Shown here: one piece after another, positions 3,937 to 64,000 of the stretch
Layout of the letters: each line of letters starts with the position of its first letter
How positions within the stretch are numbered: the stretch's first letter is position 1
Assembly: GCA_964634875.1 (NCBI GenBank)
Contig: CAZWKA010000002.1
Span: 79,590 to 143,589, forward strand
Direction of reading: 5' to 3'
DNA from: an uncultured Gammaproteobacteria bacterium
GTDB taxonomy: Bacteria; Patescibacteriota; Patescibacteriia; Magasanikbacterales; GWA2-37-8
DNA length: 64,000 bases
Position numbers and translations under genes: made by a program
The notes under the pieces: generated by a model
Database searches by the model: none
The model's input: only the letters and a program-made list of their open reading frames with translations
Told to the model about the DNA's origin: nothing

Positions 3937-3940
3937 ACAA

Positions 3941-7256: not shown

Positions 7257-8093
7257 TTAACTGCTTAAAGAATAAAAATGACGGATCGCTTCAATAAGCC
7301 GATTATGCAAAACACCATTAGTCACCACAATCCCCTCTGGATGTTTGACTACGGCCGTATTATACAACAAAGGTTGGCCGCGCGTATCGGTTATAGCACC
7401 ACCAGCTTCTGTAATCAAGCAATGTCCAGCGCTGGTATCCCACTGGCTAATATGACGCGTAAAAGAAAAATAAATATCAGCACTACCACGTGCTAATTCA
7501 GCTATTTTAAGTCCGCAGCTGCCGGTTTGTTTCTCACTTCCTAATCCCAATGTTCCTAAAAATTCTTTTTCTGCAGCGCTTAAGTGGTTCCGGCTTACCA
7601 ATGCCTCAGCTACATTAAAATCGTCGGTCTTACTTACCCCTATTTTACTTAGTTTATTATCTTGAACAAGAAAAGCGCCTCTTCCTTTTTCTGCTATAAA
7701 ATAACGTTCGCGGGCTGGCTGGTACACAATACCAATAGCGGGAATACCATTATCAACTAAACCAATAAGCACGGTAAATTCGTCATTATGGTCGATAAAA
7801 TCCTGCGTACCATCGATTGGGTCGACAATCCAGACCTTCTCAGCATTAAGACGATCTGCTGAGTCAGCCGTTTCTTCGGATAAAATTGGATAACCGGAAG
7901 TATTTAGAATTTCTGAAATTACCTGGTTACTTGCCACATCAGCTTCGGTTACCGGGCCTTCATTGTTTTCTTTTTCACGCACTGAAAAATCACGGGCGTA
8001 TATTTCCCGGATGCGGATGCCCGCAGCTTCCGCCGCAGTAAGAGCGAGCTGGCAATCCGGGCTGAATTGTCCTTTAAAAGCCTCAGAAATCAT
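7257..8093 (-). CDS. cysQ: 3'(2'),5'-bisphosphate nucleotidase CysQ (inositol monophosphatase family; PAP phosphatase)
   Basis: IMPase-family metal-binding motifs (EE...WIVDPIDGT; WD). 278 aa. There is a 4-bp overlap with cysC. Confidence 0.7.
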   Translation of the reverse strand: MISEAFKGQFSPDCQLALTAAEAAGIRIREIYARDFSVREKENNEGPVTEADVASNQVISEILNTSGYPILSEETADSADRLNAEKVWIVDPIDGTQDFIDHNDEFTVLIGLVDNGIPAIGIVYQPARERYFIAEKGRGAFLVQDNKLSKIGVSKTDDFNVAEALVSRNHLSAAEKEFLGTLGLGSEKQTGSCGLKIAELARGSADIYFSFTRHISQWDTSAGHCLITEAGGAITDTRGQPLLYNTAVVKHPEGIVVTNGVLHNRLIEAIRHFYSLSS

Positions 8094-8617
8094 AGGCGAC
8101 CACTGGCTTCCAAAAAAGCCAGTAATTTTTTAATACTTTCGTCCGGGCTTTCGCCCGTAGTTTTAATTTCAATTTCAGGATTGAGCGGTGCTTCATAAGG
8201 ATTACTAACACTTACTCCAATAAGATTTGTCAGTTCGCCTGACGCGGCTTTCGCGTACAGCCCTTTAGTGTCACGGGCAACGCATTCTTCGAGAGGGCAG
8301 TTAACATACACTTCAACAAAATCAGGGCCTATTTTTTGGCGGGCGGCTTGCCGGTCTTCGCGGTAGGGAGAAATAATGGGTGTAATAATAAAATCATATT
8401 CTACCACATGCCCAACAGCGAGCTCGGCAATCAGGCGGTTATTCTCACGGATATCTTCACGGGTGAAACCCAGGTGTTTATGAAGCGTGTCACGCACGGT
8501 GTCACCGTCAAAAAGAATTACTTTTTTCCCTATGGCCATTAATTTTTCTTTTAGGCCATTTGCAATCGTTGACTTGCCAGAACCGCTTAACCCTGTAAAC
8601 CAAAGTACTGTTGCCAT
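8090..8617 (-). CDS. cysC: Adenylyl-sulfate kinase (APS kinase)
   Basis: Walker A motif LWFTGLSGSGKST and an LDGDTVR-type motif (LFDGDTVRDTL). 175 aa, canonical CysC length. Confidence 0.85.
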   Translation of the reverse strand: MATVLWFTGLSGSGKSTIANGLKEKLMAIGKKVILFDGDTVRDTLHKHLGFTREDIRENNRLIAELAVGHVVEYDFIITPIISPYREDRQAARQKIGPDFVEVYVNCPLEECVARDTKGLYAKAASGELTNLIGVSVSNPYEAPLNPEIEIKTTGESPDESIKKLLAFLEASGRL

Positions 8618-32409: not shown

Positions 32410-33762
32410 TTAGAGACCCAATACCTTTAAATGACTAACAATTACTGACCAAAAAGCAAAAACATCTATGATAGATACAACTGTCAAGAAACCACTAACT
32501 ACGAGCACGATTCGGCGCTGTTCTGACCAGATTTTTTTCCTGTTAACAACTATATAAGCCGCAAAAATGGCGAGCAAGGGATAAATTTGGAAACGATAGC
32601 GTGACTGTACCACCGTTGGTAATAGTACAATAATCGAACTGAACGCCATGACGGCAAGGTAGCGATGTTGCCGAGTACCCACTCGCCATAGTACAGGCAA
32701 GCCGATAAAACCGAACATAAACAGAAAGGCAATCGCGACACCAGACAGTGCCACAAAAATAGCTTGTGATAGGCCTTGCTGATAGAACCAAAAGCCCATA
32801 GGCCGTATCAGGCTGAAATAACGTATTGTACGGATAAGGCTGAGCTTAATAAACGAAAGCGGATGTTCGAGTAAAAAACTTTTAAATTCCTGGTTTGCTT
32901 TTTGCTTAAAATTGAGGAAACCATTGGCTTCGCTATAGGTGGTTACCGGATTAAAACCACCAGAAATTTGGCCACCATTACTTTGAAGCGTGTTACCAAT
33001 CCAAATATTGTATCCTCCTACCAAAGTTGTCGGAATAAAGGTTTTAAAATGATGGTAATTTCGGAGCGTCCACGGAGCAAGCACTGCTCCGAGTACGCAA
33101 ATAAAAACAGCTGCAGAAAAAAAGTTTTTTCTGAGCGCGTAGGCAACCAGAATAATAGGGACAAATAAAAATACCGGCGGACGGCTTAAGATCGCCAAAC
33201 CCGCAACAAACCCCAGCCCCCCTGCCCATCGCCAACTACCCGGCAGCTCATAGGCACGCACAAAAAACCAAATAGTCAGCGTCGTCAAAAAAAGATACAG
33301 CGTTTCTGTAAGAAGCATGGCCGAAGCTTCGATAAGATCTGGATGAAAACCAATACTAGCCGCAGCAACCAGGCCAATTACTATTCCTCCCTCAGAAAAA
33401 AGACGTCGGCCAATTAAAAAAACTAAACCCGCTGTGGCAGCATGCAGGATCGCTTGCACAACCCACACCGCAGCATACGAATGTCCAAAAAGAGCGTACA
33501 CACCGGCTAAAAAAAATTCGTACCCCGGACCTGCGCGGATGATGGCTGTATCAAAGACAAAACTTTGCTCACACACCTCCTTAAAACCACACCCACTGAG
33601 CAGGTTCAGCGCAATAGCATCATAGGCCTGAGCATCAACCAAAGGTTGGATACGGTAGATAAAAGCGTAGGCTAAAGTAGCGACCAAGGAGCAAAAAATA
33701 ATACCCCAGAGTACTCGTTCAGGCACCTGGTTAACGACTTTTTTTAAGCTGCTCAAATTCAT
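32410..33762 (-). CDS. GT-C membrane glycosyltransferase, PMT/ArnT family
   Basis: 450-aa polytopic protein with an acidic first loop (DAQAYDAIALNLLSG). There is a 32-nt overlap with the downstream Rmd-like gene. Confidence 0.55.
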   Translation of the reverse strand: MNLSSLKKVVNQVPERVLWGIIFCSLVATLAYAFIYRIQPLVDAQAYDAIALNLLSGCGFKEVCEQSFVFDTAIIRAGPGYEFFLAGVYALFGHSYAAVWVVQAILHAATAGLVFLIGRRLFSEGGIVIGLVAAASIGFHPDLIEASAMLLTETLYLFLTTLTIWFFVRAYELPGSWRWAGGLGFVAGLAILSRPPVFLFVPIILVAYALRKNFFSAAVFICVLGAVLAPWTLRNYHHFKTFIPTTLVGGYNIWIGNTLQSNGGQISGGFNPVTTYSEANGFLNFKQKANQEFKSFLLEHPLSFIKLSLIRTIRYFSLIRPMGFWFYQQGLSQAIFVALSGVAIAFLFMFGFIGLPVLWRVGTRQHRYLAVMAFSSIIVLLPTVVQSRYRFQIYPLLAIFAAYIVVNRKKIWSEQRRIVLVVSGFLTVVSIIDVFAFWSVIVSHLKVLGL

Positions 33763-34708
33763 AGGTAATCATCATCTCAACGAGTTCCTTAAACGAAGTA
33801 CGCGGCATCCAGCCCATTTTTTTAATTGCTTGGTTTGAACCTTTCATTTCTTTGATCTCGTCTTTTCTGATAAATTCCTTCTTTTGGATTATTCTATTTT
33901 TCCACACTTTTACACCAGCAACTCGAAAGGCTTCAGCGGCGAAATCCGCAAGTGAGCGGGTGATGCCGGTGCAGATAACTGCGTCCGTTGGTTTTTGCTG
34001 CTGGAGCATCAACCACATTGCTTCAACATAATCGCCAGCAAAACCCCAGTCCCGCCGTACCGACAAATCCCCCACTTCGATTCTGGCTGCCTCACCCATG
34101 GCAATAGCTACGACCCCCTGGCAAATTTTTTTAGTAACAAAATTCGCCTGACGCAGCGGCGATTCATGGTTGAATAAAATACCATTTACTGCATACGTCC
34201 CATAGTGTTCGCGAGCAATATGCACACCCCAATGCGCTGCGGCTTTAGACAGGGCATAGGGGTTGGGCGGCTCAAAACGATACGAACGCTCGGTAATACT
34301 TTTTTCACTATTACCATACATTTGGGCGCTTGAAGGATTGAAAAAGCGGGTTGCCGGACTTAATAGTCGAATATTTTCCAAAATAGCCATCGTGGCATTG
34401 AAATTAGTCGTCAGTGTCTCGGCGGGTGCTTCCCACGACTGAGTAACGCTTGATTGTCCGGCAAAATTGTACCATTCCCGGGGCTGGTATGTACGTAAAA
34501 TTTTAGCAATTTTTTTCTGGTCATCAATCGAACCCTTTACCAGAATCACATCCGATAAAACATCCAGGTACAGCAGGCGCTCTAAACTTTTTTTGGTGGT
34601 GGAACGAGCCAAACCAACAACCGAATACCCTTTTGCAACCAAAAAACGAGCAAGATACGCCCCATCTTGTCCGTCAATACCGGTGATAACGGCAACATTT
34701 TTGGCCAT
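33731..34708 (-). CDS. GDP-mannose 4,6-dehydratase paralog; likely GDP-4-keto-6-deoxy-D-mannose reductase (Rmd-like) or a second Gmd
   Basis: Short-chain dehydrogenase/reductase (SDR) fold (VITGIDGQDGAYLA; YALSK catalytic pair). It is homologous to the adjacent canonical Gmd but diverged. Confidence 0.6.
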   Translation of the reverse strand: MAKNVAVITGIDGQDGAYLARFLVAKGYSVVGLARSTTKKSLERLLYLDVLSDVILVKGSIDDQKKIAKILRTYQPREWYNFAGQSSVTQSWEAPAETLTTNFNATMAILENIRLLSPATRFFNPSSAQMYGNSEKSITERSYRFEPPNPYALSKAAAHWGVHIAREHYGTYAVNGILFNHESPLRQANFVTKKICQGVVAIAMGEAARIEVGDLSVRRDWGFAGDYVEAMWLMLQQQKPTDAVICTGITRSLADFAAEAFRVAGVKVWKNRIIQKKEFIRKDEIKEMKGSNQAIKKMGWMPRTSFKELVEMMITYEFEQLKKSR

Positions 34709-34731: not shown

Positions 34732-35724
34732 TTAAAGGGTGATACCCACCTCAGCACAGTCATTTATTACCATAATTTTTACTAATTCTTTAAAGCTCGT
34801 TGTAGGTTGCCAGCCTAATTTTTGGCGGGCTTTAGTAGCGTCACCGAGCAGGCGGTCAACTTCCGTTGGACGGAAATATTTTGCGTCTACGACAACATGG
34901 TCTTCCCAGTTCAGTCCTGCAATTGCAAATGCTTCACGACAGAATTCACGGACAGTATGCGTTTCACCCGTGGCGATAACATAGTCATCCGGGGCCGACT
35001 GCTGGAGCATGAGCCACATTGCTTCAACATAATCTTTAGCGTAACCCCAGTCACGCTCAGCATCTAGATTTCCTAAGTAGAGCTTGTCAGTTTTTTTAAC
35101 CAGGATATCGGCAATGCCTTTGGTAATTTTACGGGTAACAAAGTTTTCCCCGCGGCGAGGCGATTCGTGGTTGAACAAAATACCATTGCAGGCAAAGAGG
35201 CCATAGCTTTCACGGTAATTTACCGTAGAATAGTGGGCAAAAACTTTGGCGGTTGCATAGGGGCTGCGCGGATAGAACGGGGTTGTTTCACGCTGCGGTG
35301 TTTCGAGGACTTTGCCGAACATTTCGCTACTTGAGGCCTGGTAAAATTTAGTCTTTGCCCCATGGTCCCGAAGCCATTCTAAGATACGCACCGCACCAAC
35401 ACCAGCAACGTCAGCGGTATATTCTGGGACGTCAAAACTAATTTTGACGTGGCTTTGGGCAGCCAGGTTGTAAATTTCATCAGGCTGAATCTTGCTGAGC
35501 AAGCGCGCAAGACTGCTGCCATCGGTCATATCGCTGTAATGCAAAAACAAATCACGATCACGGTGTTCGGCGTAGACGTGCTCCAAACGCTCACGGAAAA
35601 CGTTGCTTGAGCGGCGCACAAGACCATGCACTTCGTAGCCTTTAGAAAGCAGTAATTCAGTAAGATAACTCCCATCCTGGCCAGTGATACCCGTAATTAA
35701 AGCCTTTTTCTTCGGTTCGGTCAT
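34732..35724 (-). CDS. gmd: GDP-mannose 4,6-dehydratase
   Basis: [24 protein letters not shown] catalytic motif, NHESPRRG. 330 aa; textbook Gmd. Confidence 0.85.
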
Positions 35725-48037: not shown

Positions 48038-48523
48038 ATGAAAATAGTAGCTGTGGAGGCACCCGTGGAAAAAAACCAAGCTTACTGCACCGTCTTTCCG
48101 CCCGTTTCTCAATTCTGGTTCACGCTGTCATGGGGATTGCGCGGCTGTAAGGACGCGATTATGCGCGAACTCGCCATACTAGTGAAAACCCATCGCCGAC
48201 TCCTCGAAGAGTCCTTTCGGCGCACTTTCGATGAGCGCGACCCGGCGAAGCGAGATGTTTGCAAACAGTACCTGGCGCGACTAGAAGAATCATACGACAA
48301 AACCCAACGTGCCTATGATGATATTGCCAGCTGGAGAGCACGAGGCCCCACAGGAGCGAAACTGCTCGTTACAAAGCAGGCTCAAGATGAGCAGCAGGTC
48401 AGAATATCTTTTTCTTATAGCGATGAACGAGGCAGTTGGCTTGTAGCCTTGCGCTGGCCGAAACCGCGCATTACTTCAATTAAGCCGGCCTTCAGCATCA
48501 GCTTCGAACCCCCTCCTGCCTAA
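48038..48523 (+). CDS. Hypothetical protein (GC-elevated small ORF)
   Basis: The ORF has no recognisable motifs. The probable start is the ATG at 48161 (MRELAIL), preceded by an AAGGA ribosome-binding site. Composition is visibly richer in GC than the flanks. Confidence 0.35.
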   Translation: MKIVAVEAPVEKNQAYCTVFPPVSQFWFTLSWGLRGCKDAIMRELAILVKTHRRLLEESFRRTFDERDPAKRDVCKQYLARLEESYDKTQRAYDDIASWRARGPTGAKLLVTKQAQDEQQVRISFSYSDERGSWLVALRWPKPRITSIKPAFSISFEPPPA

Positions 48524-52266: not shown

Positions 52267-55200
52267 TTAGTAGGTGAAGGTCTTGTATTGCAATGGCAAG
52301 TCAAGGCCCATAGCTGTTAAGCCAGTAGAGACGCCATCCGACCATACGATACCGCCGTTAGGAATGCGGATCGAAAGGGACTTGGATTGAGCAGCGTCGC
52401 TGGTGTCTAAGGTCACGAAGAAAGTCTTCGAGGAACCAGACGAGATGCTGACATCAGTGAAGTTAGCATCGACGATAGTTGTAGCGCCGCTGATGGTTGG
52501 CATACCAGAACCATTGCTGTTGAAGTTTGTCGTAGCCAAGGCAGTCGTGTTAAGAGAGTCTTTGTAGACAGTCAAAGCACGGGCAGTGTTAAGACCGCCA
52601 GCCTGTGAAATGGTAGAGGACAATTCAAAGTTAATATGGCTAATGGTAGCTGTGTAGTTCCCAGCGTTTGCTAAGTTCGTAACAACAAACTTGCCAATCG
52701 TTTGGGCTGCAGCAGGAGAACCGGCTCCGTTAGGGGAATCGGAAGACCAGGCAGTTGTCAACTTAGCGCGGTACAAGGTAGTTGTAGCAGCGTAAGCAAC
52801 GCGGTTGGTGTTGAACGAGCCAGTGTTAACCTGGAAGATCTTAGTGCCAGAGTCAATGACGTCTGGGGTAATGACCGTACCAGATGAACCACCTGTAGAA
52901 GTAATTGAGAGGCTGTCGCCACTGTAATACTTCGCGAGGGCAAGGTTAACAACCTGGCCGGTGGTGGTAAGACCACTGTCATCGTACGTAACGATATCAG
53001 CTACAACCTGGAGAACTTTGGAAGCGCCTTTCGGTACTTGGAAAGTAAGATTGCTGAAGGTAGCGTGTACGAGGGTGGAGGTAGCACTACTGCTGTCAAA
53101 GGAAGGTACTGTTGTACCAATCTGTTGACCATTGTCATTGTCGATAAGTTTGATGTTGCGGAGTGTACCGGTAGCACCAGAACTTACGCGATTGCTGACA
53201 ACTAACTGAGTGATGTTGATCGGCTCAGTTGAAGAAGCAGTGACATTAAATTTACCAAGTAACTGACCAGTAGCACCCATCAAGTAGTTGGTGGTAACTG
53301 GAGTATCGGAATCGATAGCTACAGTGTAAGCACCAGCTGTTGAGACGTAGTTGTTCTGGAGAGAAACGGTAGGAGTTGTGTAGCTGGCGCTGCTGCCGGT
53401 TTTAACACCAGTTGCAGTTACAGCACTAACCTTGATCAAGTTTGAGCCACCAGTGTAGGCAGCCTTGAGGTCAGCGTAGATACCAACAGCGTACTGAGAA
53501 CCGTTAACAACGCGGATAGCCGGGGAGATGTTAAAGGTGTAGGTGTTGGCAGGATTACAGGAAGTAGCCTGTGGATTTGGGTAGGTTTGACCAAGTTGTT
53601 TGCCAGCGGCATCCTTCAAGGTCAAATTTTGCATCGTAGCACCGATACAGACAGTAGCGGTCTCAGTCAAAGTGACTTGAGAAACGTCAACGTCTTCTCC
53701 AGCTCCAGCGGTAATGATGAAAGAACCAACTTTAGCTTGAGTAGCGTTTACTGTTCCGTTCGGGTTGGTAGATGATTTGTCACCAAAGGAAGTGTCCTTG
53801 GTAACACTAACCGTACCAGATTTTACCGTTACAGTGTTGGCATTCTGTTCAACAGTCGAAAGCGAGCTGAGGGAAATAACGCCCTGAGCATTGCTCGATC
53901 CATCGTCCAAACCAACAGTGATAGTGTCGTTAGCTGCAATCGTAGCGTCTGTGGTGTCTGCAGTTACAGTAACGGTCGCAGTGGTGCCAGCTTTAATGAT
54001 AAAGCTACTACCAAAGGTACCGAAACCAGTGTTGGCAACGCCATTACCAGTCAAGCTAGTGATAGTCGTACCAACCTGAGATCCGTCAACTAACAAACGA
54101 ACGTTTGATAATTTATCGGTGTTTACAGCGGTAATAGTAGAAGAAACGCTGAGGCTTGATACCTTAACATCTTCACCATTGGCTTTCCAAAGCCACTTAC
54201 CGAGGGTTACGTTAGTAGCCGCGTCAGCAATGTTGCCAGTTGGAGAGTCGGAAGCGAGAGTCTGAGTGAGCGATCCAGTGTTAACACTGTAGTTCACTGC
54301 AGTTCCTGCTGAGTTTGGTTCAATGATATTGAAGCTGTCAGTACCATTGGCTTTCAAGAAGACATTGTATCCACGGTCGTAGACAACGATGTCAGAAGAG
54401 TTCTGCAAGGTAGCGCGGAATTGGCGGTTAGTACCGGCAACAACGTCAGCCTTGAGGCTCAAAATCTTGGTTTGTCCTTTGGTAATAACATATGGAGCTG
54501 CTGACCAGTCGAACCAGACAGTTTTGTCTGAGCTCATGTCAGCAACGGTTGAACCGATCTGGGTTGCACCGTCCCAAAGAGAGAAATTCTTGAGGTCACC
54601 AACGTTGACTGAGCCAACGATCGTGAAGTTCAATTTGCGAATTTCAGTATCCTGAGCAGTGTTTTGAACCTGGATTCTCCAGATTTCGTATCCAGTTGTA
54701 CCAGGATCTACCGTTGCGTTAGCAGATGGAGCAGAGCTGGTGAAAGCAAGTTTACCAAGATCCGTTACCGAAGCTGTAGTAAACATGTTGCTGGACAATG
54801 GGAAGCTTCCACTTACAGTACCAGAGGTAGTGATAATGGAAGAAGCAGCCTGGACAGAGAATCCAATCGTCTTACCAGAGGTAACGGCGGTTTTGAGATC
54901 CATCTTGACCCATACTGGCTTAACAGTTCCGCGGCTTACGGTGAAAAGACCGGAAGAGTTGGAGAAAGTTACTAAACCATTGGAAATGCTTGGATTTGAT
55001 CCAACTTTAACACCCATGTCATCGTAGAGGTACAAGTTGCTGATATCGGTATCAGCAGAAATACCTGTTCTCTTCAATTGAACAGAGGTAACTTTTACAT
55101 CTCCATCGTTACCGGCGGAGAAGTTCAATTTTAAGACTGGGATTTGTCCCTGAGCACCATTGGTGGTATCAGAAACGATCGTGGTAGCAAAAGGGTTGTC

Positions 55201-55992
55201 ACTCGCAAGTGAAACACTAAGGCTTCCATTTTGAGTTGGGCTTGGGTTGCCAACTACACCACCGCTCTGAGTCTTGTCCGTGAGGGCTTTGACTTCAGCA
55301 GTGATAGCTACGTCGGTCATCAAACCAGCAACCGCACTGTCTGAGACAGCGTGGACAAACTTAGTCTGGAAACCGTTAGCTGTCATACCAGTGGAAGTTA
55401 CTTCTTGCAACTTACCATCTTTGTTGACATACCAAGTTTTGCCGCCGTTTGAGACGAGCATACCTGGGTGTACTTTAGCTTCAGTTACGTCTGCACCGCG
55501 CTGGGTGTAATGTGGCCAGAAAGCATCGTCAACGACCATAACTTTGTAGTTAGTGCCGTAGAGAGCTTTGGCTGCATCAGCCGTAATTTTTGACAAGGTG
55601 TTGCCCGGTAATACAACGTAGAGTTGGTCGGAAGAAGGGCGCTTCACGACATAGGAACCTGGTTGGTAGTTAACTGCACCAGGGTAGGTACTAGGTACCG
55701 ACAAAGAGTCGAAACAAGCCTGATCGATAGAAACATATCCACCGTAGGTTGGTCTCCAGCTCTTGAAAACGTCACCATTTGGGAAGTAAAGGACTTTGAG
55801 GTCGTTGTTAACAGCGTAAATAGCTGGTTTGCCAGTTACTTTAAGCATGTCGCCAGCGTTCAATGTAGGACATACAGCTGCCTGAGCGGCGAGCGGTAAA
55901 AGCGCAGCATTGAGACCGGAGAAGACTACGGTAACAGCAACGGAAACGACGACGTTCACAATCTTTCTTCCGAGTTTTTTTACATCGTTCAT
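52267..55992 (-). CDS. Giant secreted/surface protein, Ser/Thr/Gly/Asn/Val-rich with repeated beta-rich (Ig-like) modules
   Basis: 1241 aa. N-terminal signal or anchor sequence (VVVSVAVTVVFSGLNAALLPLAAQAAV). The remainder is low-complexity Ser/Thr-rich repeats of about 100-130 aa. No enzymatic motifs. Confidence 0.6.
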   Translation of the reverse strand: MNDVKKLGRKIVNVVVSVAVTVVFSGLNAALLPLAAQAAVCPTLNAGDMLKVTGKPAIYAVNNDLKVLYFPNGDVFKSWRPTYGGYVSIDQACFDSLSVPSTYPGAVNYQPGSYVVKRPSSDQLYVVLPGNTLSKITADAAKALYGTNYKVMVVDDAFWPHYTQRGADVTEAKVHPGMLVSNGGKTWYVNKDGKLQEVTSTGMTANGFQTKFVHAVSDSAVAGLMTDVAITAEVKALTDKTQSGGVVGNPSPTQNGSLSVSLASDNPFATTIVSDTTNGAQGQIPVLKLNFSAGNDGDVKVTSVQLKRTGISADTDISNLYLYDDMGVKVGSNPSISNGLVTFSNSSGLFTVSRGTVKPVWVKMDLKTAVTSGKTIGFSVQAASSIITTSGTVSGSFPLSSNMFTTASVTDLGKLAFTSSAPSANATVDPGTTGYEIWRIQVQNTAQDTEIRKLNFTIVGSVNVGDLKNFSLWDGATQIGSTVADMSSDKTVWFDWSAAPYVITKGQTKILSLKADVVAGTNRQFRATLQNSSDIVVYDRGYNVFLKANGTDSFNIIEPNSAGTAVNYSVNTGSLTQTLASDSPTGNIADAATNVTLGKWLWKANGEDVKVSSLSVSSTITAVNTDKLSNVRLLVDGSQVGTTITSLTGNGVANTGFGTFGSSFIIKAGTTATVTVTADTTDATIAANDTITVGLDDGSSNAQGVISLSSLSTVEQNANTVTVKSGTVSVTKDTSFGDKSSTNPNGTVNATQAKVGSFIITAGAGEDVDVSQVTLTETATVCIGATMQNLTLKDAAGKQLGQTYPNPQATSCNPANTYTFNISPAIRVVNGSQYAVGIYADLKAAYTGGSNLIKVSAVTATGVKTGSSASYTTPTVSLQNNYVSTAGAYTVAIDSDTPVTTNYLMGATGQLLGKFNVTASSTEPINITQLVVSNRVSSGATGTLRNIKLIDNDNGQQIGTTVPSFDSSSATSTLVHATFSNLTFQVPKGASKVLQVVADIVTYDDSGLTTTGQVVNLALAKYYSGDSLSITSTGGSSGTVITPDVIDSGTKIFQVNTGSFNTNRVAYAATTTLYRAKLTTAWSSDSPNGAGSPAAAQTIGKFVVTNLANAGNYTATISHINFELSSTISQAGGLNTARALTVYKDSLNTTALATTNFNSNGSGMPTISGATTIVDANFTDVSISSGSSKTFFVTLDTSDAAQSKSLSIRIPNGGIVWSDGVSTGLTAMGLDLPLQYKTFTY

Positions 55993-57569: not shown

Positions 57570-58151
57570 TTATTGTTTGGCAATTTCTTTTAATTTTTTG
57601 AGGGCGCGGTGAAGCGTTACACGGACGGCGATCGCACCTTTGCCGGTGATCTCTCCAATTTCATCCATTTCAAGTTCATCAACAAACCGCAGTATTATTA
57701 TTTCTTGATATTCTTGTTTCAATTTTTTAAGTGCCTGGACCAGTTTTTCATTTTCAATCTTAATCTCTAATTTTTCGTGCCACGCCCCCCTATCACCAAC
57801 TTCCGTTTCTTCGTTGAGGAGCAAGGGTTCTTTGGCCCGGCTGCGATACAAGTCTATAATTGATGTCCGGGCAACGCGGTACAAAAGTCCGCTAAAACTT
57901 TTTACTTCCTTATTTTCGCGGAGATAATTCCAGGTTTTAAGGAACACATCAGCGGTAACATCTTCGGCTTCTTCTCTTGAGCTAACTTTAAAATAAACAA
58001 AACGGTAGATTTGTTTAACATAAACATCGTACAACTGGCCAAAAGCTTCTGGGTCTTGTTTGGCCTGGATACGATACAGTAGCAGCTTTTCAGAGATCTT
58101 GTTCATTAATGAAGACGCCAAAAATAAAAAAATGTTACACTTCAGAAACAT
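57570..58151 (-). CDS. RNA polymerase sigma-70 family ECF sigma factor
   Basis: Region 2 (VTADVFLKTWNYL) and region 4 HTH (ILRFVDELEMDEIGEITGKGAIAVRVTLHRALKKL). Real start probably at MNKISEKL. Confidence 0.8.
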   Translation of the reverse strand: MFLKCNIFLFLASSLMNKISEKLLLYRIQAKQDPEAFGQLYDVYVKQIYRFVYFKVSSREEAEDVTADVFLKTWNYLRENKEVKSFSGLLYRVARTSIIDLYRSRAKEPLLLNEETEVGDRGAWHEKLEIKIENEKLVQALKKLKQEYQEIIILRFVDELEMDEIGEITGKGAIAVRVTLHRALKKLKEIAKQ

Positions 58152-58352
58152 TCTCTCACGAACTTCTATATTCTATAGCTGTAATAAGCATTTTTGAACT
58201 TCCTTAAGCACCTCTGGGGCTTCTTAAACTACTCCTTAAAATACCAAAAAAACGCCTTAACGTCAAATAATACCCCCCTTTTTAAAACCCTCAAGATCAT
58301 TGCTTCTGTAACGCGCTTCTTAGGACGCCGGTCAAGAAAGCTTTTCTTTTTA

Positions 58353-58382
58353 TTATTTGTATATACTATCCTATACAAATAA
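58353..58382. promoter_or_regulatory. Operator-like inverted repeat TTATTTGTATA-N8-TATACAAATAA
   Basis: Perfect 11-bp arms (58353-58363 and 58372-58382). It lies in the divergent region between the ECF sigma gene and the Xis-HTH gene. Confidence 0.5.
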
Positions 58383-58426
58383 TAATTTTTGAACGTAGGG
58401 CTAAAATAAGGTCATTTTTTGATTAT

Positions 58427-58448
58427 TTGTATACACAAGTGTATACAA
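58427..58448. promoter_or_regulatory. Second operator-like inverted repeat TTGTATACA-CAAG-TGTATACAA sharing the TTTGTATA half-site
   Basis: Perfect 9-bp arms with a 4-bp spacer. The upstream direct repeat TTATTTGTATA is shared with the first palindrome. Confidence 0.5.
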
Positions 58449-58485
58449 TCATAACAAAATACAGCACTCTTTTTAGGCCTAAGTA

Positions 58486-58514: not shown

Positions 58515-58919
58515 TTGTCTAGACTACTTTATACAAACATTATGAATCCTCCGGCCAAGTCCGTGGAATCAAAAGAAATGATACGTGTTTCGATCTCAGA
58601 GGCGGCCCGACTTTTTGGGGTTAACACCCAAACAATTCGCAGAGCCATTAAAGCCCAAGAAATTACCTACGTCATAGTAGGCGGGCGCTACAAGCTTAAC
58701 TTTGAAAATCTTGTTAAATGGTCCCAACGCCACATTACGATTCAGAACAAGCTGGCAAAAAAAGGTATCGGGCAATTTGTAGATAAATGGAAAATTAAAA
58801 ACCCTCTTTTTTCCCCCAATCCCAAATCAATCAGCAAGCCAGGGAGCGAACCTAAAGAAGAGGCACCACTCCTCACCCCTCCTTCAGCTATCACCCCAAG
58901 CTCTTCAAAAAATCCCTAA
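58515..58919 (+). CDS. Excisionase/Xis-family helix-turn-helix DNA-binding protein
   Basis: ISEAARLFGVNTQTIRRAIKAQEITYVIVGGRYKLNFENLVKW matches the excisionase-family HTH (MerR-like). The ORF-track start is a TTG; the probable real start is the ATG at 58541. It has a Pro/Ser-rich C-terminal tail. Confidence 0.6.
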   Translation: MSRLLYTNIMNPPAKSVESKEMIRVSISEAARLFGVNTQTIRRAIKAQEITYVIVGGRYKLNFENLVKWSQRHITIQNKLAKKGIGQFVDKWKIKNPLFSPNPKSISKPGSEPKEEAPLLTPPSAITPSSSKNP

Positions 58920-59025: not shown

Positions 59026-60774
59026 ATGTTTAAACGCATCCACGCTTTTTTTCACACCCACTACCACAGACATTATCATGGCATTTATAAAAACCCAAAA
59101 AAACTTTTTATCTTTGACCTCTTCCTTTTGGGCACCTCGCTCATTATGCTGGGCAGCAGTTTATTCTTTTTTTTCTGGAAACCCGGCACCACCGATCTCG
59201 TTGACCTGAAAATAAGCCTTGGTGACACCCGTATCAAAAGCGGTGAAGCGGTTAAAGTCAGTGTCAATTTTACCAACCGAAATAAGTTTGAACTCACCCG
59301 CCCGACACTCGCCATTCATTTGCCTGACGGTTTTATAGTTGATCGAAGCAAAACTCCGGAAAGTGTTTTTTCGAACAACTCCATCGTTGCACTCGACACG
59401 ATCGAGCCGGGAGCAAAAGGACAGGCTGAGGTCTACGGACATCTTTTTGCAGAACCTAAAACTGACGAGCGTATACTTGCCTCACTCTCGTACCAAGCAG
59501 GTCCCGATCGAGCAGTTGAACAAAAACTGGCTTCATACTTTATCACGCTCCCCGAGAGCATTCTCCAAGATACTCTAGCCATTGCCAGCTCTAGTTTTGG
59601 CAAGCAGTCCGTGCCGTTTACGTATACTCTTAAAAATACAGGTAGTACGCCCGTAAATAACTTGGGGCTTGAGGACACCTGGAATGAACCGCTCGTTCCT
59701 GAAAATAAACGCAAAGATCTGACTTTGGCACCTGGCGAAACAATTGAGCTCAAAGGCACACTCACAGCACCTACTCAAGCCGGAGAGTATACAGTGGTTA
59801 TCCGTTCATATGTCGTTGCCAACAACCAAAAAATCACCCAATCAACCCAGCAAAAAAAATTGACCGTCATCGTTCCTGAGTTACGCTCGGAAATTAAACT
59901 TACCAAACCTGTCGCTTTTGTTGAACCTCGCCAAGAGCTTCCACTGGAAATAAGCTGGAAAAACACCAACGCATTTGCGCTCAAAAATGTACGGCTGAAG
60001 ATCACTCCTACTGCCGGACTTGTTGACCTCGCCAAAACAGGGCGTGAAAATCAGTTGAAGGTTGAAAACGGCGCGCTCGTTATCGATAGCAGCCGACGGA
60101 CAGTGCTAGGACGCGCAGAGCCTGGAGCTACAGATACGCTCGAGATCACCCTATACTTACTCCCTTCGTTCCAAGGCTCAAATAACGCCCCACGCCTGAC
60201 TATCACTCCCACACTCGAAGGCAGCACCGAGCTTATCGAGGGACAGGTTTTTAACGAGAGTAGCGCGCCGCTTATTCTCGCACTTTCAACTGACTTGGCA
60301 CTCAACGCGGAAGTACGCTACTTTACTGCCGAAGGAGACCAACTCGGCCGCGGTCCCTTGCCACCGGAAGTTGGTAATAGCACCAAATACTGGGTCTTCC
60401 TCGAACTCTTTAACACCATTAACCCCACCGAAGAAAATGCTTTAACCATCTCTTTGGCGCCGGGCGTTACCTTTACTGGCAAACAAAGTGTCACCCTGGG
60501 CAAGCCGCTCGGCACCTCTGGCGACGGACGTACACTTTCCTGGCAACACCCCGAAATTCCACCCGCCACAAAAACCGGCTGGTATTTTGAACTAGAAAGC
60601 ACTCCGACCGAAGCGAATATCGGAAAAAACCTAAGCTTAGTGCAGGGCATAACGTTTACTGCCAAAGACAGCGTGGTCAGTAAGGCATTTAGATTGCAAC
60701 CTGGAAGCCTGACAAACGTGCTCAAAGCCAATGACCGCGGTTCACGATCCGCTTCAAAAGTAATTGCACCGTAA
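59026..60774 (+). CDS. Membrane-anchored extracytoplasmic repeat protein (DUF11/CARDB-like beta-sandwich repeats?), His-rich N-terminus
   Basis: N-terminal HTHYHRHYHG segment, then a TM helix (LFIFDLFLLGTSLIMLGSSLFFFFW), then about 500 aa of Thr/Leu/Pro-rich beta-type repeats. No catalytic motifs. Confidence 0.4.
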   Translation: MFKRIHAFFHTHYHRHYHGIYKNPKKLFIFDLFLLGTSLIMLGSSLFFFFWKPGTTDLVDLKISLGDTRIKSGEAVKVSVNFTNRNKFELTRPTLAIHLPDGFIVDRSKTPESVFSNNSIVALDTIEPGAKGQAEVYGHLFAEPKTDERILASLSYQAGPDRAVEQKLASYFITLPESILQDTLAIASSSFGKQSVPFTYTLKNTGSTPVNNLGLEDTWNEPLVPENKRKDLTLAPGETIELKGTLTAPTQAGEYTVVIRSYVVANNQKITQSTQQKKLTVIVPELRSEIKLTKPVAFVEPRQELPLEISWKNTNAFALKNVRLKITPTAGLVDLAKTGRENQLKVENGALVIDSSRRTVLGRAEPGATDTLEITLYLLPSFQGSNNAPRLTITPTLEGSTELIEGQVFNESSAPLILALSTDLALNAEVRYFTAEGDQLGRGPLPPEVGNSTKYWVFLELFNTINPTEENALTISLAPGVTFTGKQSVTLGKPLGTSGDGRTLSWQHPEIPPATKTGWYFELESTPTEANIGKNLSLVQGITFTAKDSVVSKAFRLQPGSLTNVLKANDRGSRSASKVIAP

Positions 60775-60782
60775 TAAAAAAT

Positions 60783-60830
60783 AAAAAAGAACGAAAGGAA
60801 AACTTTCGTTCTTTTTTATTTTTTGTTTTT
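60783..60830. terminator. Bidirectional rho-independent terminator (aagaacgaaag-gaaaa-ctttcgttctt flanked by A and T runs)
   Basis: 11-bp stem and T-run after the repeat-protein gene. The symmetric A-run means it can also terminate minus-strand transcripts from the GC-rich island. Confidence 0.65.
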
Positions 60831-60883
60831 CCAGTAGAAGTTTCTAGCACCTAAGTAAGGTACTAAAAGCTTGGATCTACTGG
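60831..60883. repeat. Structured repeat element copy A (53 nt; terminal inverted repeat CCAGTAGA...TCTACTGG)
   Basis: It lies in the 3' UTR of GC-island gene 1, between its stop codon and the terminator. It is about 88% identical to copy B. Confidence 0.6.
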
Positions 60884-60929
60884 AAAGGAGGAAGAGACGA
60901 CCCAGCCGAACACAGGTTAGACCTGCGTT

Positions 60930-61613
60930 CTAGAACGGGGGCGGCGGGACGGGACGGCGGGGCTTCTTTTTGACCACCTTCTTCTTGGGCGGGACAACGA
61001 CCTTCTTCTTCGCACAATCCTTGGCGAGCACATCGCGATCGAGCTCGAGATCCTTGATGCGACGCTCCGCCGCGCGCTGCACGAGGGCGGCTGAGGTGCG
61101 GTAGAAAAAGTAGGTACCAGAACAGACAAGCAAGCCGACGACAGCAGCCAGCAGACAGGCCGACTTGAACAGCCTGCTGTCATCCTTGGCAGCTACAAGA
61201 GCCTGCTGCGCTTGCAACTTTTCGGCAGCCTCGGCTCGGAACAACTGATCCTTCTGATCGAGACTGGCGGCAGCGGCCTTGCGTGTGGCCTCGAGACGAG
61301 CCTCCAGCTGCTGGGCACGCTCGAGGGCGTCCTTTTCAGCACGAGTTGCCGTGCAGGCCTGCTGCTCCAGCTTATTAGCCCGAAGCGCTTCTTGGTCGGC
61401 CACCTCTTCAGCGGCCGCGGTCACGCGGCAGAGCGCAACCAGAGCGTTACACTCGAAGGGGTGAGCCTGGACCAAGTCGGCCCAGTTCATAGACACGAGC
61501 TTTGCAGGCACAGGAATCGTCTTTTTGGACATGAAACCCTCCAGTAAAAAGTTTACATACCTCTTTGAGGCATGCTTCCTTAAATACTCTATAGCTGATA
61601 GAGAACTTAACAA
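60930..61613 (-). CDS. Coiled-coil single-pass membrane protein (GC-rich island gene 1)
   Basis: Probable start at the ATG at 61532 (MSKKTIPV), preceded by a GGAGGG ribosome-binding site. Ala/Glu/Arg/Gln-rich coiled coil, a TM helix (ACLLAAVVGLLVCSGTYFFY) and a Lys/Pro-rich C-terminal tail. GC-rich codon usage unlike the neighbouring genes. Confidence 0.45.
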   Translation of the reverse strand: MLSSLSAIEYLRKHASKRYVNFLLEGFMSKKTIPVPAKLVSMNWADLVQAHPFECNALVALCRVTAAAEEVADQEALRANKLEQQACTATRAEKDALERAQQLEARLEATRKAAAASLDQKDQLFRAEAAEKLQAQQALVAAKDDSRLFKSACLLAAVVGLLVCSGTYFFYRTSAALVQRAAERRIKDLELDRDVLAKDCAKKKVVVPPKKKVVKKKPRRPVPPPPF

Positions 61614-61645
61614 AACATGCCTTATTTTTAAGGAACTAACGCCTA

Positions 61646-61674
61646 ACTATAGCACATTTTTACCCTTTTGTCAA
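61646..61674 (-). promoter_or_regulatory. Sigma70-like promoter (TTGACA-N17-TATAGT) for GC-island gene 1
   Basis: The minus-strand sense reads cTTGACAaaagggtaaaaatgtgcTATAGT, about 110 nt upstream of the ATG at 61532. Confidence 0.55.
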
Positions 61675-61680
61675 GGTTGT

Positions 61681-61718
61681 CGGCCAAAACAAAAACAACC
61701 GTTTTGTGCGGTTGTTTT
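61681..61718 (-). terminator. Rho-independent terminator (minus strand) after GC-island gene 2 and repeat B
   Basis: Stem aaaacaaccg/cggttgtttt with a ttttgtg loop. The minus-strand RNA then has a U-rich tail (uuuguuuugg). Confidence 0.5.
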
Positions 61719-61733
61719 GGCTTGAGAAACCCT

Positions 61734-61787
61734 CCAGTAGAAGTTCCTACCACCTTGGTAAAGGTAGTAAAAGCTTGGATCTACTGG
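61734..61787. repeat. Structured repeat element copy B (54 nt)
   Basis: Same position relative to GC-island gene 2 (3' UTR, before the terminator). Same outer 8-bp stem, with an inner 7-bp stem carrying a compensatory G-C to C-G change relative to copy A. Confidence 0.6.
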
Positions 61788-61868
61788 AGTGAGTATAAAG
61801 TGATGACCCTTGCCGAAAACGAGTTTTCACTCATTCTCTAGACAGCTCGGGCCACGGAACCTCTCTGG

Positions 61869-62654
61869 CTAGCTGCCCTCGGCCTTCAGACGCTGGGCGC
61901 GCAGATGGGCCTTGCGGGCAGCCTTCTTGAGGGCACGCCGCTCGTCGGCCTGGCGAGCCTCGTTGACCTGGCGCTGCAGGGCCTTCTGGCCCTGTTCGGC
62001 CTCGATCAGCTCGCGATCGCGGGCGTCCACGGCCTTCTCCAACGTACGGGCGTTCGCCTCACTGCTCGTGGCCGCAAAGCGCGCCTCGGCGATGGCACGA
62101 TCCTTCTGGATGAGTCTCTTTGCGTACTCGTTGTACTGGTAGAGACTGAAGGCCGAACAGAAGGCCGTGAACACCATGAAGACGAGGACGAAGCGGCGGC
62201 TGCGTCTCTTGGTTTTCGCTCGGTGGCTCTTGGCGAGGCTGGTGCGAACATCGGCCACAGCGTCGCGCTGATCGATGATGGTCGCGGCGAGCGCTTGCAC
62301 GAGAGCAAGGTGCGCTGCGGCCTGGTTCTTCAGCTCACGGTGGAAGTAGAGGGCAACCGCGACTCTCGCCTTTTCCGCGAGGCGAAGCTCCTCCAGGTGA
62401 CTCTGGCGCGTTTCCCGGCGCTCGGTGATGAGCTCCTGGATACGAATGGAGCGACCCACGAGATCAACCAGCAGCTGCTGGATGATGCGGCGGCTCTGTG
62501 CCAGATCGTCCTGGAGGGTGAGCATACGGAGGCCATGGCTCACCAGGGTGCTGGCGTCCGGCGTCGGATCCGCCTGGACGAGGCGGAGCGGCGGGAACTG
62601 GGGCAGCGTGGCCGAAGAGCCGGGCTTGGCATGCGAAGCGACAATATCATCCAT
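61869..62654 (-). CDS. Coiled-coil single-pass membrane protein (GC-rich island gene 2; architecture paralogous to gene 1)
   Basis: GGGAGG ribosome-binding site 5 nt upstream of the ATG. Coiled-coil regions flank a TM helix (FVLVFMVFTAFCSAFSLYQY). It has the same promoter, gene, 3' repeat and terminator layout as gene 1. Confidence 0.45.
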   Translation of the reverse strand: MDDIVASHAKPGSSATLPQFPPLRLVQADPTPDASTLVSHGLRMLTLQDDLAQSRRIIQQLLVDLVGRSIRIQELITERRETRQSHLEELRLAEKARVAVALYFHRELKNQAAAHLALVQALAATIIDQRDAVADVRTSLAKSHRAKTKRRSRRFVLVFMVFTAFCSAFSLYQYNEYAKRLIQKDRAIAEARFAATSSEANARTLEKAVDARDRELIEAEQGQKALQRQVNEARQADERRALKKAARKAHLRAQRLKAEGS

Positions 62655-62774
62655 GATGGTGTCCTCCCAAAAACAGGTTATACATCCGCACCTAGGGTTA
62701 AGGTGCGTTCCCGCAAAAGCTCAGTAAAAGCTTTTAAGGAAAAACACCTTATATTTCAAAGACCACGACAAACC

Positions 62775-62803
62775 AGCCTAGTACATTTTAGCCGTTTTGT
62801 CAA
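62775..62803 (-). promoter_or_regulatory. Sigma70-like promoter (TTGACA-N17-TAGGCT) for GC-island gene 2, homologous to the gene 1 promoter
   Basis: The minus-strand sense reads TTGACAaaacggctaaaatgtacTAGGCT. It can be aligned to the gene 1 promoter block (TTGACAAAAGGGTAAAAATGTGCTA...). Confidence 0.45.
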
Positions 62804-62835
62804 GATATGCTCAGCATTAAACCTTAATTTTAGCT

Positions 62836-62872
62836 AAAAAAAGAAAGCCCTGGCTAGGTGTACTAGCCAGGA
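62836..62872 (-). terminator. Rho-independent terminator (minus strand) after the Pro-rich lipoprotein gene
   Basis: 9-bp stem cctggctag/ctagccagg with a gtgta loop, followed on the minus strand by a U-run (from the plus-strand aaaaaaagaaag). Confidence 0.55.
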
Positions 62873-62908
62873 CTTGAAGAAGGACTCCCTAGAAGAACAA
62901 CGTGCCGC

Positions 62909-63310
62909 CTACTCAGCCAACACGCAGATCAGCTGCCACTCCTGTTGAGTAGCCGGAGCCGGAGGGGGCGGTGGAGGAGGGGCCGGTGGAAGTGGCGGGT
63001 TTGGAGGGGGCGGATCAAGCCGACCGAGTTGGACAGTGAAACCGTCTTGCCCCGGGGGATTACAGAGCACGGTATCACCACTTCGAACGCACTCCAGCAC
63101 TGTCCTTGCGCGTTCACCGGTAGTGATAGTACATCGGCTTGGCGCTCGCGGGATCACTGCCAAAATATCGGGGGCGACAGGAATGAACTCTACGTCCGAC
63201 TCATGACTGACGGTCGACCCAAAGCCTCCACCAACACCATAGGCAACCAAGGCCGGACAACCTGGTAACAGCACAAGCACACACGGCAAAAAACACGTCG
63301 TGAGCTTCAT
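62909..63310 (-). CDS. Putative lipoprotein with poly-proline C-terminal region
   Basis: Signal peptide with a lipobox-like LLPGC and a C-terminal PPPPNPPLPPAPPPPPPPAP stretch. GC-rich. Followed by a rho-independent terminator. Confidence 0.4.
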   Translation of the reverse strand: MKLTTCFLPCVLVLLPGCPALVAYGVGGGFGSTVSHESDVEFIPVAPDILAVIPRAPSRCTITTGERARTVLECVRSGDTVLCNPPGQDGFTVQLGRLDPPPPNPPLPPAPPPPPPPAPATQQEWQLICVLAE

Positions 63311-63389
63311 GGCTGACTCCTTTCGTGAACCAAAAGATCAGAACTACATCGTAAGATAAACATTTTTTTGCCGTAACGTCAATACAGAT

Positions 63390-63998
63390 TTAGTGCTTAC
63401 CCGAGAAAGCAGACGCCAATTTTTGAAGCCGCTGTACCTGGTCAACTTTTTCCCAAGAAAATCCCTCTTTTCCAAAATGTCCGTAGCTCGCTGTAGCTCG
63501 GTACATCGGCCGAAGCAACTGCAGCTGTTCAATAATTTTACCCGGACGAAAATCAAAAACACGTGCAATTATTTTTACCAGATCCGCGTCAGCGATCGCA
63601 CTGGTACCAAAGGTATTTACATTAATGCTCGTTGGCTCTGCTTTACCGATGCAATAAGCCACTTGGACTTCACACCGTTCGGCCAAACCGGCAGCGACCA
63701 TGTTTTTGGCCACATAGCGAGCCATGTATGCGCCCGAACGATCTACCTTTGATGCGTCTTTGCCTGAAAAGCAGCCCCCGCCATGCCGACCCATGCCGCC
63801 GTAGGTATCGACAATAATTTTGCGCCCCGTCAGCCCCGCATCACCATGTGGGCCACCGACCACAAAGCGGCCAGTCATATTAATATGGAACTCAGTTTTC
63901 TTGTCGAGGTAGCGGGCGCACACAGGATTAATAACGTGCTTAATGATATCGGCGCGTAATTTTGTGAGCGACACTTTTTCATCATGCTGGGCTGACAC
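63390..63998 (-). CDS. metK: S-adenosylmethionine synthetase (methionine adenosyltransferase), C-terminal part; gene continues beyond the window end
   Basis: [21 protein letters not shown] and [26 protein letters not shown] motifs of MetK. The ORF is open at the window edge. Confidence 0.85.
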
Positions 63999-64000
63999 CA

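Follow-up and report, generated by a model that had tools for sequence, protein, structure and literature searches.

The concept of 'minimal mobile elements', small flexible islands at intergenic hot spots, comes from work on Neisseria and on marine bacteria. Stem-loops that stabilize messenger RNA (mRNA) are known from the 5' end of transcripts, as in the ompA type, and from the 3' end, as in the 'retroregulator' hairpins of the Bacillus thuringiensis cry genes. Integron cassettes are mostly promoterless and are expressed from Pc. Morons are defined by a deviant content of guanine plus cytosine (GC) together with a promoter and a terminator of their own, and the products of prophage morons are often membrane proteins or lipoproteins which block phage or alter the cell surface (PMC3594210). 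Genomic islands are reported to be common in Patescibacteria (PMC12455944). Here, a 64-kb stretch (the window) of the metagenome-assembled contig CAZWKA010000002.1, which is 182,704 nt long, was analyzed. Window positions 60823-63389 are a real chromosomal insertion of ~2.6 kb in a Patescibacterium and hold three minus-strand, GC-rich open reading frames (ORFs A, B and C), all of which are orphans. The best reading of this island, to which we assign a probability of about 0.6, is a lineage-specific insertion of moron-like, horizontally acquired envelope genes at a chromosomal hot spot.

The island resembles phage morons in the HK97/HK022 sense in several respects (PMC3594210). It is additional DNA between two genes which are neighbours in relatives. 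Each unit carries its own promoter and terminator, here as consensus matches, and GC deviates from the surroundings (GC at third codon positions, GC3, of 0.55-0.81 compared to 0.423 +/- 0.044). Moron genes often encode small membrane proteins or lipoproteins, and such proteins are also predicted here. Three of the four moron features were found; unlike a moron, the island lies in a bacterial chromosome without phage genes. It also differs in comprising three consecutive units, two of which have a common scaffold of untranslated regions (UTRs) around unrelated ORFs. Furthermore, the island combines host-like promoters with foreign-like ORFs.

A GC-rich island with deviant codon usage had been noted in a preliminary description of the sequence, and the composition analysis bears this out. 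Measured per 1 kb, GC was 0.56-0.59 over 61001-63000, compared to 0.36-0.51 over 1-60000. Measured per 200 nt, it was 0.58-0.70 within ORFs A, B and C and 0.375-0.43 between them (0.37-0.43 for the intergenic pieces). The island is the sole strongly GC-rich stretch of the 64 kb, and segments at least 13 GC points above the mean of the window were otherwise confined to 220 nt within metK. GC and GC3 were 0.61 and 0.716 for ORF A, 0.65 and 0.809 for ORF B, and 0.59 and 0.545 for ORF C. GC3 thus exceeds the maximum of the 51 background ORFs of the window in all three cases (mean 0.423, sd 0.044, maximum 0.54). Bacterial orphan genes are usually AT-rich; A, B and C are the opposite. In the minus-strand frames of A and B, GC3 is higher than GC at first positions (GC1), which in turn is higher than GC at second positions (GC2; 0.44 in B), whereas in C GC3 is the lowest (GC1 0.67). 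The tetranucleotide distance of 60801-63200 to the rest of the window corresponds to z = 4.5, although one background segment is comparably distant (0.042 vs 0.040). Since GC of 0.53-0.55 persists for ~60 nt beyond each stop codon of the island, the 3' ends of the coding sequences do not mark the GC boundary. The limits given first, 60831-63330, are better placed at 60823 and 63389.

A metagenomic mis-join had been considered as another source of the composition jump. For comparison, 99 loci were fetched (L-numbers; L001, L002, L005, L082-L085 and L087-L090 are referred to below). L001 (5993 nt) belongs to the Logan assembly of run SRR12762304, which was made by a different pipeline. It matched window positions 60164-64000 over 3837 nt with 0 mismatches, spans both island borders and carries a permease gene, metK, C, B, A and the end of a gene for a 582-amino-acid (aa) protein. 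This identity rules out an assembler mis-join, though not every kind of error. A mis-join origin of the island is very unlikely given this match across both borders, and a chimera would also require six clean junctions beside start and stop codons.

Relatives were found via metK (S-adenosylmethionine synthetase) and via the 582-aa protein, the products of the two flanking genes. The complete metK in L001 has 71% identity to that of a metagenome-assembled genome (MAG) of Candidatus Magasanikiibacteriota, with MAGs of Patescibacteria and Parcubacteria among the next best matches. In the relatives, homologues of the 582-aa protein (36-59% identity in the best tblastn segment, 40-46% for near full-length matches) adjoin metK, and the two genes are convergent neighbours. 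The gap between them is ~100-145 nt in L082, L088 and L090 and holds a terminator only, compared to ~2.6 kb here; by reading of the sequence, the empty-site relatives have one terminator-like hairpin with T runs in the gap. In L002 the gap holds one DUF5666 gene of normal GC, and in L083/84 one small gene of normal GC. A different GC-rich unit was found at the same spot in opposite orientation in L087 (Ga0172368_10014493, positions 3820-4660), which is a distant relative from an unrelated metagenome. Its ORF (3939-4442) encodes a protein of 167 aa with multiple transmembrane (TM) segments, has a GC3 of 0.85 and is equipped with a TTGACA-N17-TAGTAT promoter of its own, followed at the other end by a GC-rich 3' tail and a terminator. 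Past this tail we noticed a second promoter-like sequence, TTGACAAAAATGG..., directly followed by a terminator, which has the look of an "empty" promoter. As the flanking genes are convergent neighbours with varying gap content in the relatives, the spot is variable and the island is an insertion into it. For the 582-aa protein and a neighbouring extracytoplasmic function (ECF) sigma factor, exact look-ups aimed at strain variants returned no record.

With minimal mobile elements and the genomic islands of Patescibacteria (PMC12455944) the locus has in common conserved flanks and no mobility gene inside, and the cargo at the spot ranges from none over one native-GC gene or one GC-rich gene to three genes. 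Unlike the minimal mobile elements, the relatives compared here are distant (36-59% identity, best segment) and not strains of the same species, and an exchange through homologous recombination of the flanks is putative.

All promoter, Shine-Dalgarno and terminator signals of A, B and C lie on the minus strand (Table 1). The Shine-Dalgarno sites are GGAGGG for A, GGGAGG for B and AAGGAG for C, positioned 5-10 nt ahead of the ATG codons. Ribosome-binding sites, rho-independent terminators and mutually homologous sigma70-like promoters had all been described for the island, and all of them were found again; the promoter and leader start of A and B can be aligned over ~65 nt with a score of 42 (shuffle maximum 27). 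Native promoter-like sites at 58486 and 58937 start with TTGACAAAA, as does the promoter of unit A, which indicates that the regulatory DNA of the island is host-style and not donor-style. Between the metK stop codon (63390) and C, the scan reported no terminator-like site, so metK transcripts probably now end at the terminator of C. The NCBI record gives ORF A as 227 aa with a TTG start at 61613 inside the leader hairpin, compared to 200 aa in the Logan call. The ATG at 61532 is the better start because GGAGGG lies 5 nt upstream. Just downstream of the -10 box of unit A lies the 14-mer TTAGTTCCTTAAAA (61626-61639, minus strand). It recurs exactly at L089:13594-13607 (minus strand) in a distant relative, where it belongs to the leader of a unit with a GC-rich ORF, and is otherwise absent from the 99 loci.

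The island had been presented as tandem duplicated modules consisting of promoter, membrane protein gene, 3' repeat and terminator. This holds for the non-coding scaffold of A and B: besides the promoter region, their 3' UTR modules align over ~85 nt with 88% identity (score 86, shuffle maximum 23). The coding sequences of A and B are unrelated, and unit C is homologous to neither flank of A and B. The non-homologous segment extends from the ATG to 11-45 nt beyond the stop codon. Two unrelated ORFs therefore lie between homologous flanks, within one conserved scaffold. The 3' module folds into a hairpin of ~23 bp with a 4-nt internal loop (-29 kcal/mol, z = -7.2 for unit A; -29.9 kcal/mol, z = -5.1 for unit B), and the opposite strands fold less well (-25.3 and -26.5 kcal/mol). 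Between the two copies the stem differs by two double, compensatory changes and one one-sided, wobble-compatible change, and no pair is broken. In the leader of unit A (-36.9 kcal/mol, z = -4.7) and that of unit B, the long hairpins of ~55 nt each keep 18 of 18 consensus pairs, three by double and seven by one-sided changes. These counts, taken from two sequences, are suggestive of hairpin conservation.

Long stable hairpins close to the leader's 5' end and shortly before the terminator, a better fold on the mRNA strand and compensatory changes that keep the pairing are also properties of mRNA-stabilizing UTR stem-loops. Unlike these, the island hairpins have no sequence relation to known examples and no Rfam match, and a stabilizing function is putative. 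With stems of 22-25 bp, the hairpins could just as well be sites of RNase III cleavage, which would destabilize the mRNA. Rfam 15 yielded no match at the gathering score for either the leader or the 3' hairpin, and the best E-value matches were at chance level. Covariance models detected no third copy of the 3' module or of the leader hairpin in the window or in 24-25 related loci, and an exact-pattern search found the 3' hairpin in no viral or metagenome contig. The 3' repeat described before is hence real in two copies and has no further copy in the window; in terms of repetitive extragenic palindromic (REP)-like copy number, it occurs twice in 64 kb, both times in the island, and not in relatives or public contigs. 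In addition, 61726-61742, at the 3' end of the hairpin after B, and 61533-61549, the Shine-Dalgarno region of A, are identical at 16 of 17 positions, so that the 5' arm of the hairpin after B is complementary to the ribosome-binding site of A. This match could be a trace of the joining of the units or could allow a regulatory pairing. No transfer RNA gene was found. The target of a diversity-generating retroelement was considered and rejected, since no repeat of at least 30 nt in the window involves the island.

A and B had been assigned an architecture of coiled coil, TM helix and coiled coil, and C had been called a poly-proline lipoprotein. Each of A and B does contain a single hydrophobic segment. 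In ORF A an N-terminal part of ~120 aa, which has no proline or glycine in residues 36-121 (86 residues), is followed by the hydrophobic segment (125-143) and a basic proline-rich tail. In ORF B a basic stretch, KTKRRSRR, lies ahead of the hydrophobic segment (155-173) and suggests an N-in topology. An AlphaFold2 model of B from the single sequence (predicted local distance difference test, pLDDT, 77.6; predicted template modelling score, pTM, 0.32) consists of helices at 34-143, 150-195 and 199-260. The 3.5-residue hydrophobic periodicity of A and B was not significant (p = 0.10-0.38). Hence the coiled coil is a guess, and the data support long helices. ORF C begins with a signal-like N-terminus with LPGC and ends in the poly-proline tail PPPPNPPLPPAPPPPPPPAP. 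By our own reading of the pattern, its lipobox is non-canonical, with proline at -2. The model of C (pLDDT 43.6) shows a low-confidence beta-rich region at 33-94 and was too poor for a structure search. A and B were also compared as hidden paralogues, and this was rejected (BLASTP E = 5; Smith-Waterman score 49, shuffle mean 47.7); at the DNA level, residual similarity of A and B was not detectable.

Database searches of the three proteins, as proposed in the preliminary description, returned self-matches only among 5.8 billion protein clusters (word-indexed search), and for B an exhaustive HMMER search of 1.84 billion representatives likewise returned only B itself. Nothing was above the cut-off in Pfam, PHROGs, PADLOC or NCBIfam. 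The best matches below the cut-off (MapZ, CrgA, anti-sigma-E; E = 0.003-0.02) are at chance level and reflect the helix-plus-TM make-up only. For B, nothing was found among PDB sequences, and Foldseek comparison of its model to the PDB gave only E > 6. The island DNA had no blastn match in phages and plasmids, B had no tblastn match in phage genomes, and no relatives of A, B and C were found in viral contigs. Alternative frames over the island had no Pfam match. In the literature on GC-rich orphans in the Candidate Phyla Radiation, nothing specific was found.

ORFs with outlying GC3 were more frequent in the related Patescibacteria loci (7 of 283 ORFs) than in the fetched loci from outside the Patescibacteria (4 of 1235; Fisher p = 0.0012). 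Those with native-type promoters and terminators comprise three in L005 and others in L083, L085, L087, L089 and L002. They show no significant similarity to one another or to A, B and C, and five of the six tested against Pfam belong to no family, the sixth being a DUF218 protein. L005:4403-5287 and L083:13030-13428 combine a GC3 of 0.86-0.88 with a host-like GC1 of 0.56-0.57 and have AT-rich TTGACA promoters. In the former, GC2 is only 0.32 and the product begins like a lipoprotein (…MLNMVYCS). Such enrichment at third positions only is not what a gene imported from a genome of 70% GC would show.

Table 1. Features of the island, its flanking genes and GC3-outlier ORFs of related loci (window positions unless a locus is named; minus-strand promoters and terminators of single units are given in the direction of transcription).
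Feature	Position	Strand	Remarks
582-aa surface-protein gene, left flank	59026-60774	+	N-terminal TM segment, immunoglobulin-like NEW3/CARDB-type region; convergent with island
Two-way intrinsic terminator	60778-60822	both	20-bp stem, T runs on either side; common to 582-aa gene and unit A
3' UTR module of unit A	60826-60912	-	~23-bp hairpin at 60828-60886; homologous to copy after B
ORF A	60930-61532	-	200 aa; orphan
Leader of unit A	61533-61640	-	Long hairpin 61568-61622; second stem 61527-61561, Shine-Dalgarno paired with U run
Promoter of unit A	61674-61646	-	TTGACA-N17-TATAGT with TG
Intrinsic terminator of unit B	61718-61692	-	Terminator scan
3' UTR module of unit B	61729-61819	-	Hairpin at 61732-61789; second copy of 3' repeat
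ORF B	61869-62654	-	261 aa; strict orphan
Leader of unit B	62655-62768	-	Long hairpin ~62699-62751
Promoter of unit B	62803-62775	-	TTGACA-N17-TAGGCT; homologous to unit A promoter
Intrinsic terminator of unit C	62875-62845	-	Terminator scan
ORF C	62909-63310	-	133 aa; orphan; 19% proline
Promoter-like site of unit C	63382-63353	-	TTGACG-N18-TATCTT; not homologous to A/B promoters
metK (S-adenosylmethionine synthetase) 3' part, right flank	63390-64000	-	S-AdoMet_synt_C, E = 1.9e-68; runs off window
GC3-outlier ORFs	L005:1801-2319, 4403-5299, 7884-8393; L002:3764-5053		Related Patescibacteria loci
GC3-outlier ORFs	L085:13283-13480; L089:13262-13450		Related Patescibacteria loci

The 582-aa protein has weak Pfam matches to NPCBM_assoc and CARDB. 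To the left of the island are genes for Wzy_C/TPR proteins, a GT4 glycosyltransferase, an RF-1 domain protein, an ECF sigma factor, a DUF5667 protein and a helix-turn-helix (HTH) protein. Among 10 ORFs of 44.6-58.9 kb that were checked, no phage genes were seen; the context of the island is chromosome, not prophage. The divergent gap between the ECF sigma factor gene (57570-58151, minus strand) and the HTH gene (58515-58919, plus strand) contains at 58334-58471 the palindromes TTATTTGTATAYAC…GTATACAA, present in two copies 70 nt apart which form a 50-nt inverted repeat, with an operator-like look. A 1241-aa ORF without Pfam match and with unusual codon-position GC (52267-55992, minus strand; GC1 0.47, GC2 0.49, GC3 0.47) sits where positive GC skew occurs in the window, which is confined to 52-56 kb. 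The mildest GC outlier beyond the island is a 161-aa ORF without Pfam match (48038-48523, plus strand; GC 0.53, GC3 0.54). Two adjacent ORFs at 33731-34708 and 34732-35724 (minus strand) have segments of 70-86% identity at a constant offset of 1001 nt and are tandem paralogues.

The GC of possible donors was estimated with the Lawrence-Ochman regressions, which relate codon-position GC to the GC of the genome; as a sanity check, the host medians gave 42-44% at all three positions. For ORF B the implied donor GC was concordant at all positions (GC3 66.9%, GC1 70.4%, GC2 63.7%), as for an unameliorated gene. The values for ORF A (GC3 61.4%, GC1 68.0%, GC2 61.5%) suggest slight amelioration. For ORF C (GC3 51.3%, GC1 65.5%; GC2 is not usable in this proline-rich protein) GC3 appears to have drifted host-ward. 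These values look like those expected of horizontally acquired genes of different ages, and they argue for evolved coding sequences rather than random GC-rich DNA.

We propose that the insertion took place in the terminator spacer between the convergent metK and surface-protein genes of a Magasanikiibacteriota-like Patescibacterium. It would consist of three monocistronic units, in each of which a GC-rich orphan ORF is preceded by a host-style sigma-70-type promoter, a leader and a strong Shine-Dalgarno site and is followed by an intrinsic terminator; the predicted untranslated leaders are ~40 nt long for C and 105-115 nt for A and B. The coding parts would have evolved in genomes of ~61-70% GC and have been transferred horizontally at different times, with no amelioration at third codon positions in B, slight amelioration in A and large amelioration in C. 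Host RNA polymerase would start at the three separate promoters, with predicted transcription starts at ~61639 for A, ~62768 for B and ~63346 for C. The long hairpins at the 5' and 3' ends that bracket the A and B mRNAs may act as stabilizing or processing elements, either as RNase III-type substrates or as exonuclease blocks, and would thereby support the expression of foreign ORFs. Translation would be driven by the strong Shine-Dalgarno sites, that of A perhaps being partly masked by a weak stem. A and B are predicted to be N-in/C-out single-pass membrane proteins made up mostly of long helices, with ~120-155 aa inside the cell and a helix or basic tail of 57-88 aa outside. C is a candidate exported protein, possibly lipid-anchored, with a poly-proline spacer. 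By analogy with prophage morons, the proteins probably have an accessory role at the surface or membrane, for instance in phage exclusion or in contact with a host cell. The most economical account would be that illegitimate recombination linked fragments of an unsampled mobile gene pool to native-type signals and that selection retained them. The A/B scaffold would have been duplicated locally, and one of the ORFs replaced.

Several points weigh against this proposal. No donor or homologue of A, B and C was found despite very large searches, and a horizontal origin is therefore argued from composition and synteny. The regulatory parts of the island are host-like and AT-rich (0.37-0.43 GC), so the units cannot have come intact from a GC-rich donor, and the joining of GC-rich ORFs to native-style leaders is unexplained. 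Two unrelated ORFs in one scaffold are predicted by neither simple transfer nor simple duplication. Helices without heptad periodicity and a non-canonical lipobox in C make for a weak structural reading. Of the horizontally acquired, still-expressed array proposed in the preliminary description, the foreign composition, the extra DNA relative to relatives and the stand-alone units are upheld, while transcription and translation of A, B and C are deduced from consensus signals.

The common architecture and scaffold of A and B would also fit native, fast-evolving paralogues derived from one duplicated unit, in which the scaffold was under selection, the proteins diverged beyond recognition, and high GC arose by codon selection or by another process confined to coding sequence instead of by transfer. 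With 10 of 18 leader pairs changed, the leader is strongly diverged, and the duplication need not be recent; moreover, the ORFs at L005:4403-5287 and L083:13030-13428, with their host-like GC1, look like codon-level enrichment. We nevertheless consider paralogy unlikely, because A and B retain no similarity in protein or DNA, because GC1 and GC2 are raised along with GC3 as from a GC-rich donor, because relatives have none of these genes at the site, and because no known process confines GC enrichment to coding sequence. It is decidedly unlikely that the conserved modules, the promoter-leader and the 3' hairpin, serve a dedicated and so far unrecognized cassette system as sites of recombination or capture at which ORFs are swapped in a ready-made scaffold. 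As in integron cassettes and clusters of attC sites lacking integrases (CALINs), an array of short units carries an imperfect hairpin of ~55-60 nt after the gene, unrelated cargo is combined with a conserved 3' element, and the internal loop and bulge give the hairpin a superficial likeness to a folded attC site. The position of the non-homologous segment between conserved flanks and the differing cargo of relatives at the same intergenic spot would fit such a system as well. Yet a pattern scan of 60700-63450 found no R'' (RYYYAAC)/R' (GTTRRRY) pair, the arms of the 3' hairpin reading TCCAGTAGA/TCTACTGGA, and the 10 neighbouring ORFs, the 582-aa protein and the metK fragment yielded no integrase or transposase domain, nor did the far side, which holds metK and the permease. 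Unlike integron cassettes, the island units have promoters and terminators of their own and are conserved on the 5' side too. Only two hairpins are present, the scaffold is known in these two copies and not from relatives or from viral and metagenome contigs, and unit C and the L087 unit are without it.

It is highly improbable that the ORFs are untranslated, that is, GC-rich foreign DNA or decaying fragments that stay open because stop codons are few. The dearth of homologues and families, the helices without heptad periodicity and the low-confidence model of C would be in line with this, and shadow ORFs are open too, among them a 310-aa plus-strand ORF over B. Against it stand a strong three-base periodicity (GC3 0.81 vs GC2 0.44 in B), the position of each ATG 5-10 nt after a strong Shine-Dalgarno site with a promoter upstream and a terminator downstream, the hydrophobic segment in each of A, B and C with a basic cluster before that of B, and alternative frames which have no family matches either. 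A small proline-rich exported protein beside helical single-pass membrane proteins also recalls the spanins Rz/Rz1, and the island might be the remnant of a prophage lysis cassette with A and B as i-spanin-like proteins and C as an o-spanin-like lipoprotein. This is scarcely credible: the TM segments of A and B, at 125-143 and 155-173, are not N-terminal and heptad periodicity, an i-spanin criterion, was not found. Neither PHROG nor phage tblastn and DNA matches were obtained, and no holin, endolysin or other phage gene lies nearby. Patescibacteria, moreover, are not known to have an outer membrane. For C, the comparison with an o-spanin is mixed: it has 19% proline, but it is 133 aa long, has the non-canonical LPGC and forms a separate transcription unit. 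An assembly chimera of a Patescibacterium and a GC-rich organism would account for the composition jump, and the sequence does come from a metagenome-assembled contig. It is barely conceivable in view of the identity of L001 across both borders, the AT-rich host-style promoters and terminators interleaved with the ORFs, which would require at least six precise joins, and the analogous unit that L087, from an unrelated metagenome, has at this site.

Further reaching, and improbable at present, is the idea that some Patescibacteria may have native "expression scaffolds" between whose parts unrelated GC-rich orphan ORFs are captured or swapped. Upstream, such a scaffold would provide a promoter of the housekeeping type, a leader with a 5' hairpin and a Shine-Dalgarno site; downstream, it would provide the conserved 3' hairpin together with a terminator. 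If true, this would amount to a gene-cassette mechanism that carries promoters and differs from integrons, and it would help to explain the recurring GC3-rich orphans under host-style promoters. As a capture device the scaffold would represent a new route of gene acquisition; otherwise, this is a small island of an ordinary kind.

Patescibacteria are ultra-small bacteria whose genomes are tiny and which depend on other cells, so that surface and membrane proteins are central to their lifestyle, yet these are mostly unannotated. The locus is a checkable case of three foreign-looking orphan genes for putative envelope proteins, placed on host-style expression signals at a variable chromosomal spot. 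It goes beyond a routine islet in two respects, namely the unrelated ORFs in one conserved UTR scaffold and the recurrence of GC3-rich orphan units with native-type promoters in related lineages. Both touch on the question of how symbionts with streamlined genomes acquire and express new genes, and on the origin of orphan genes.

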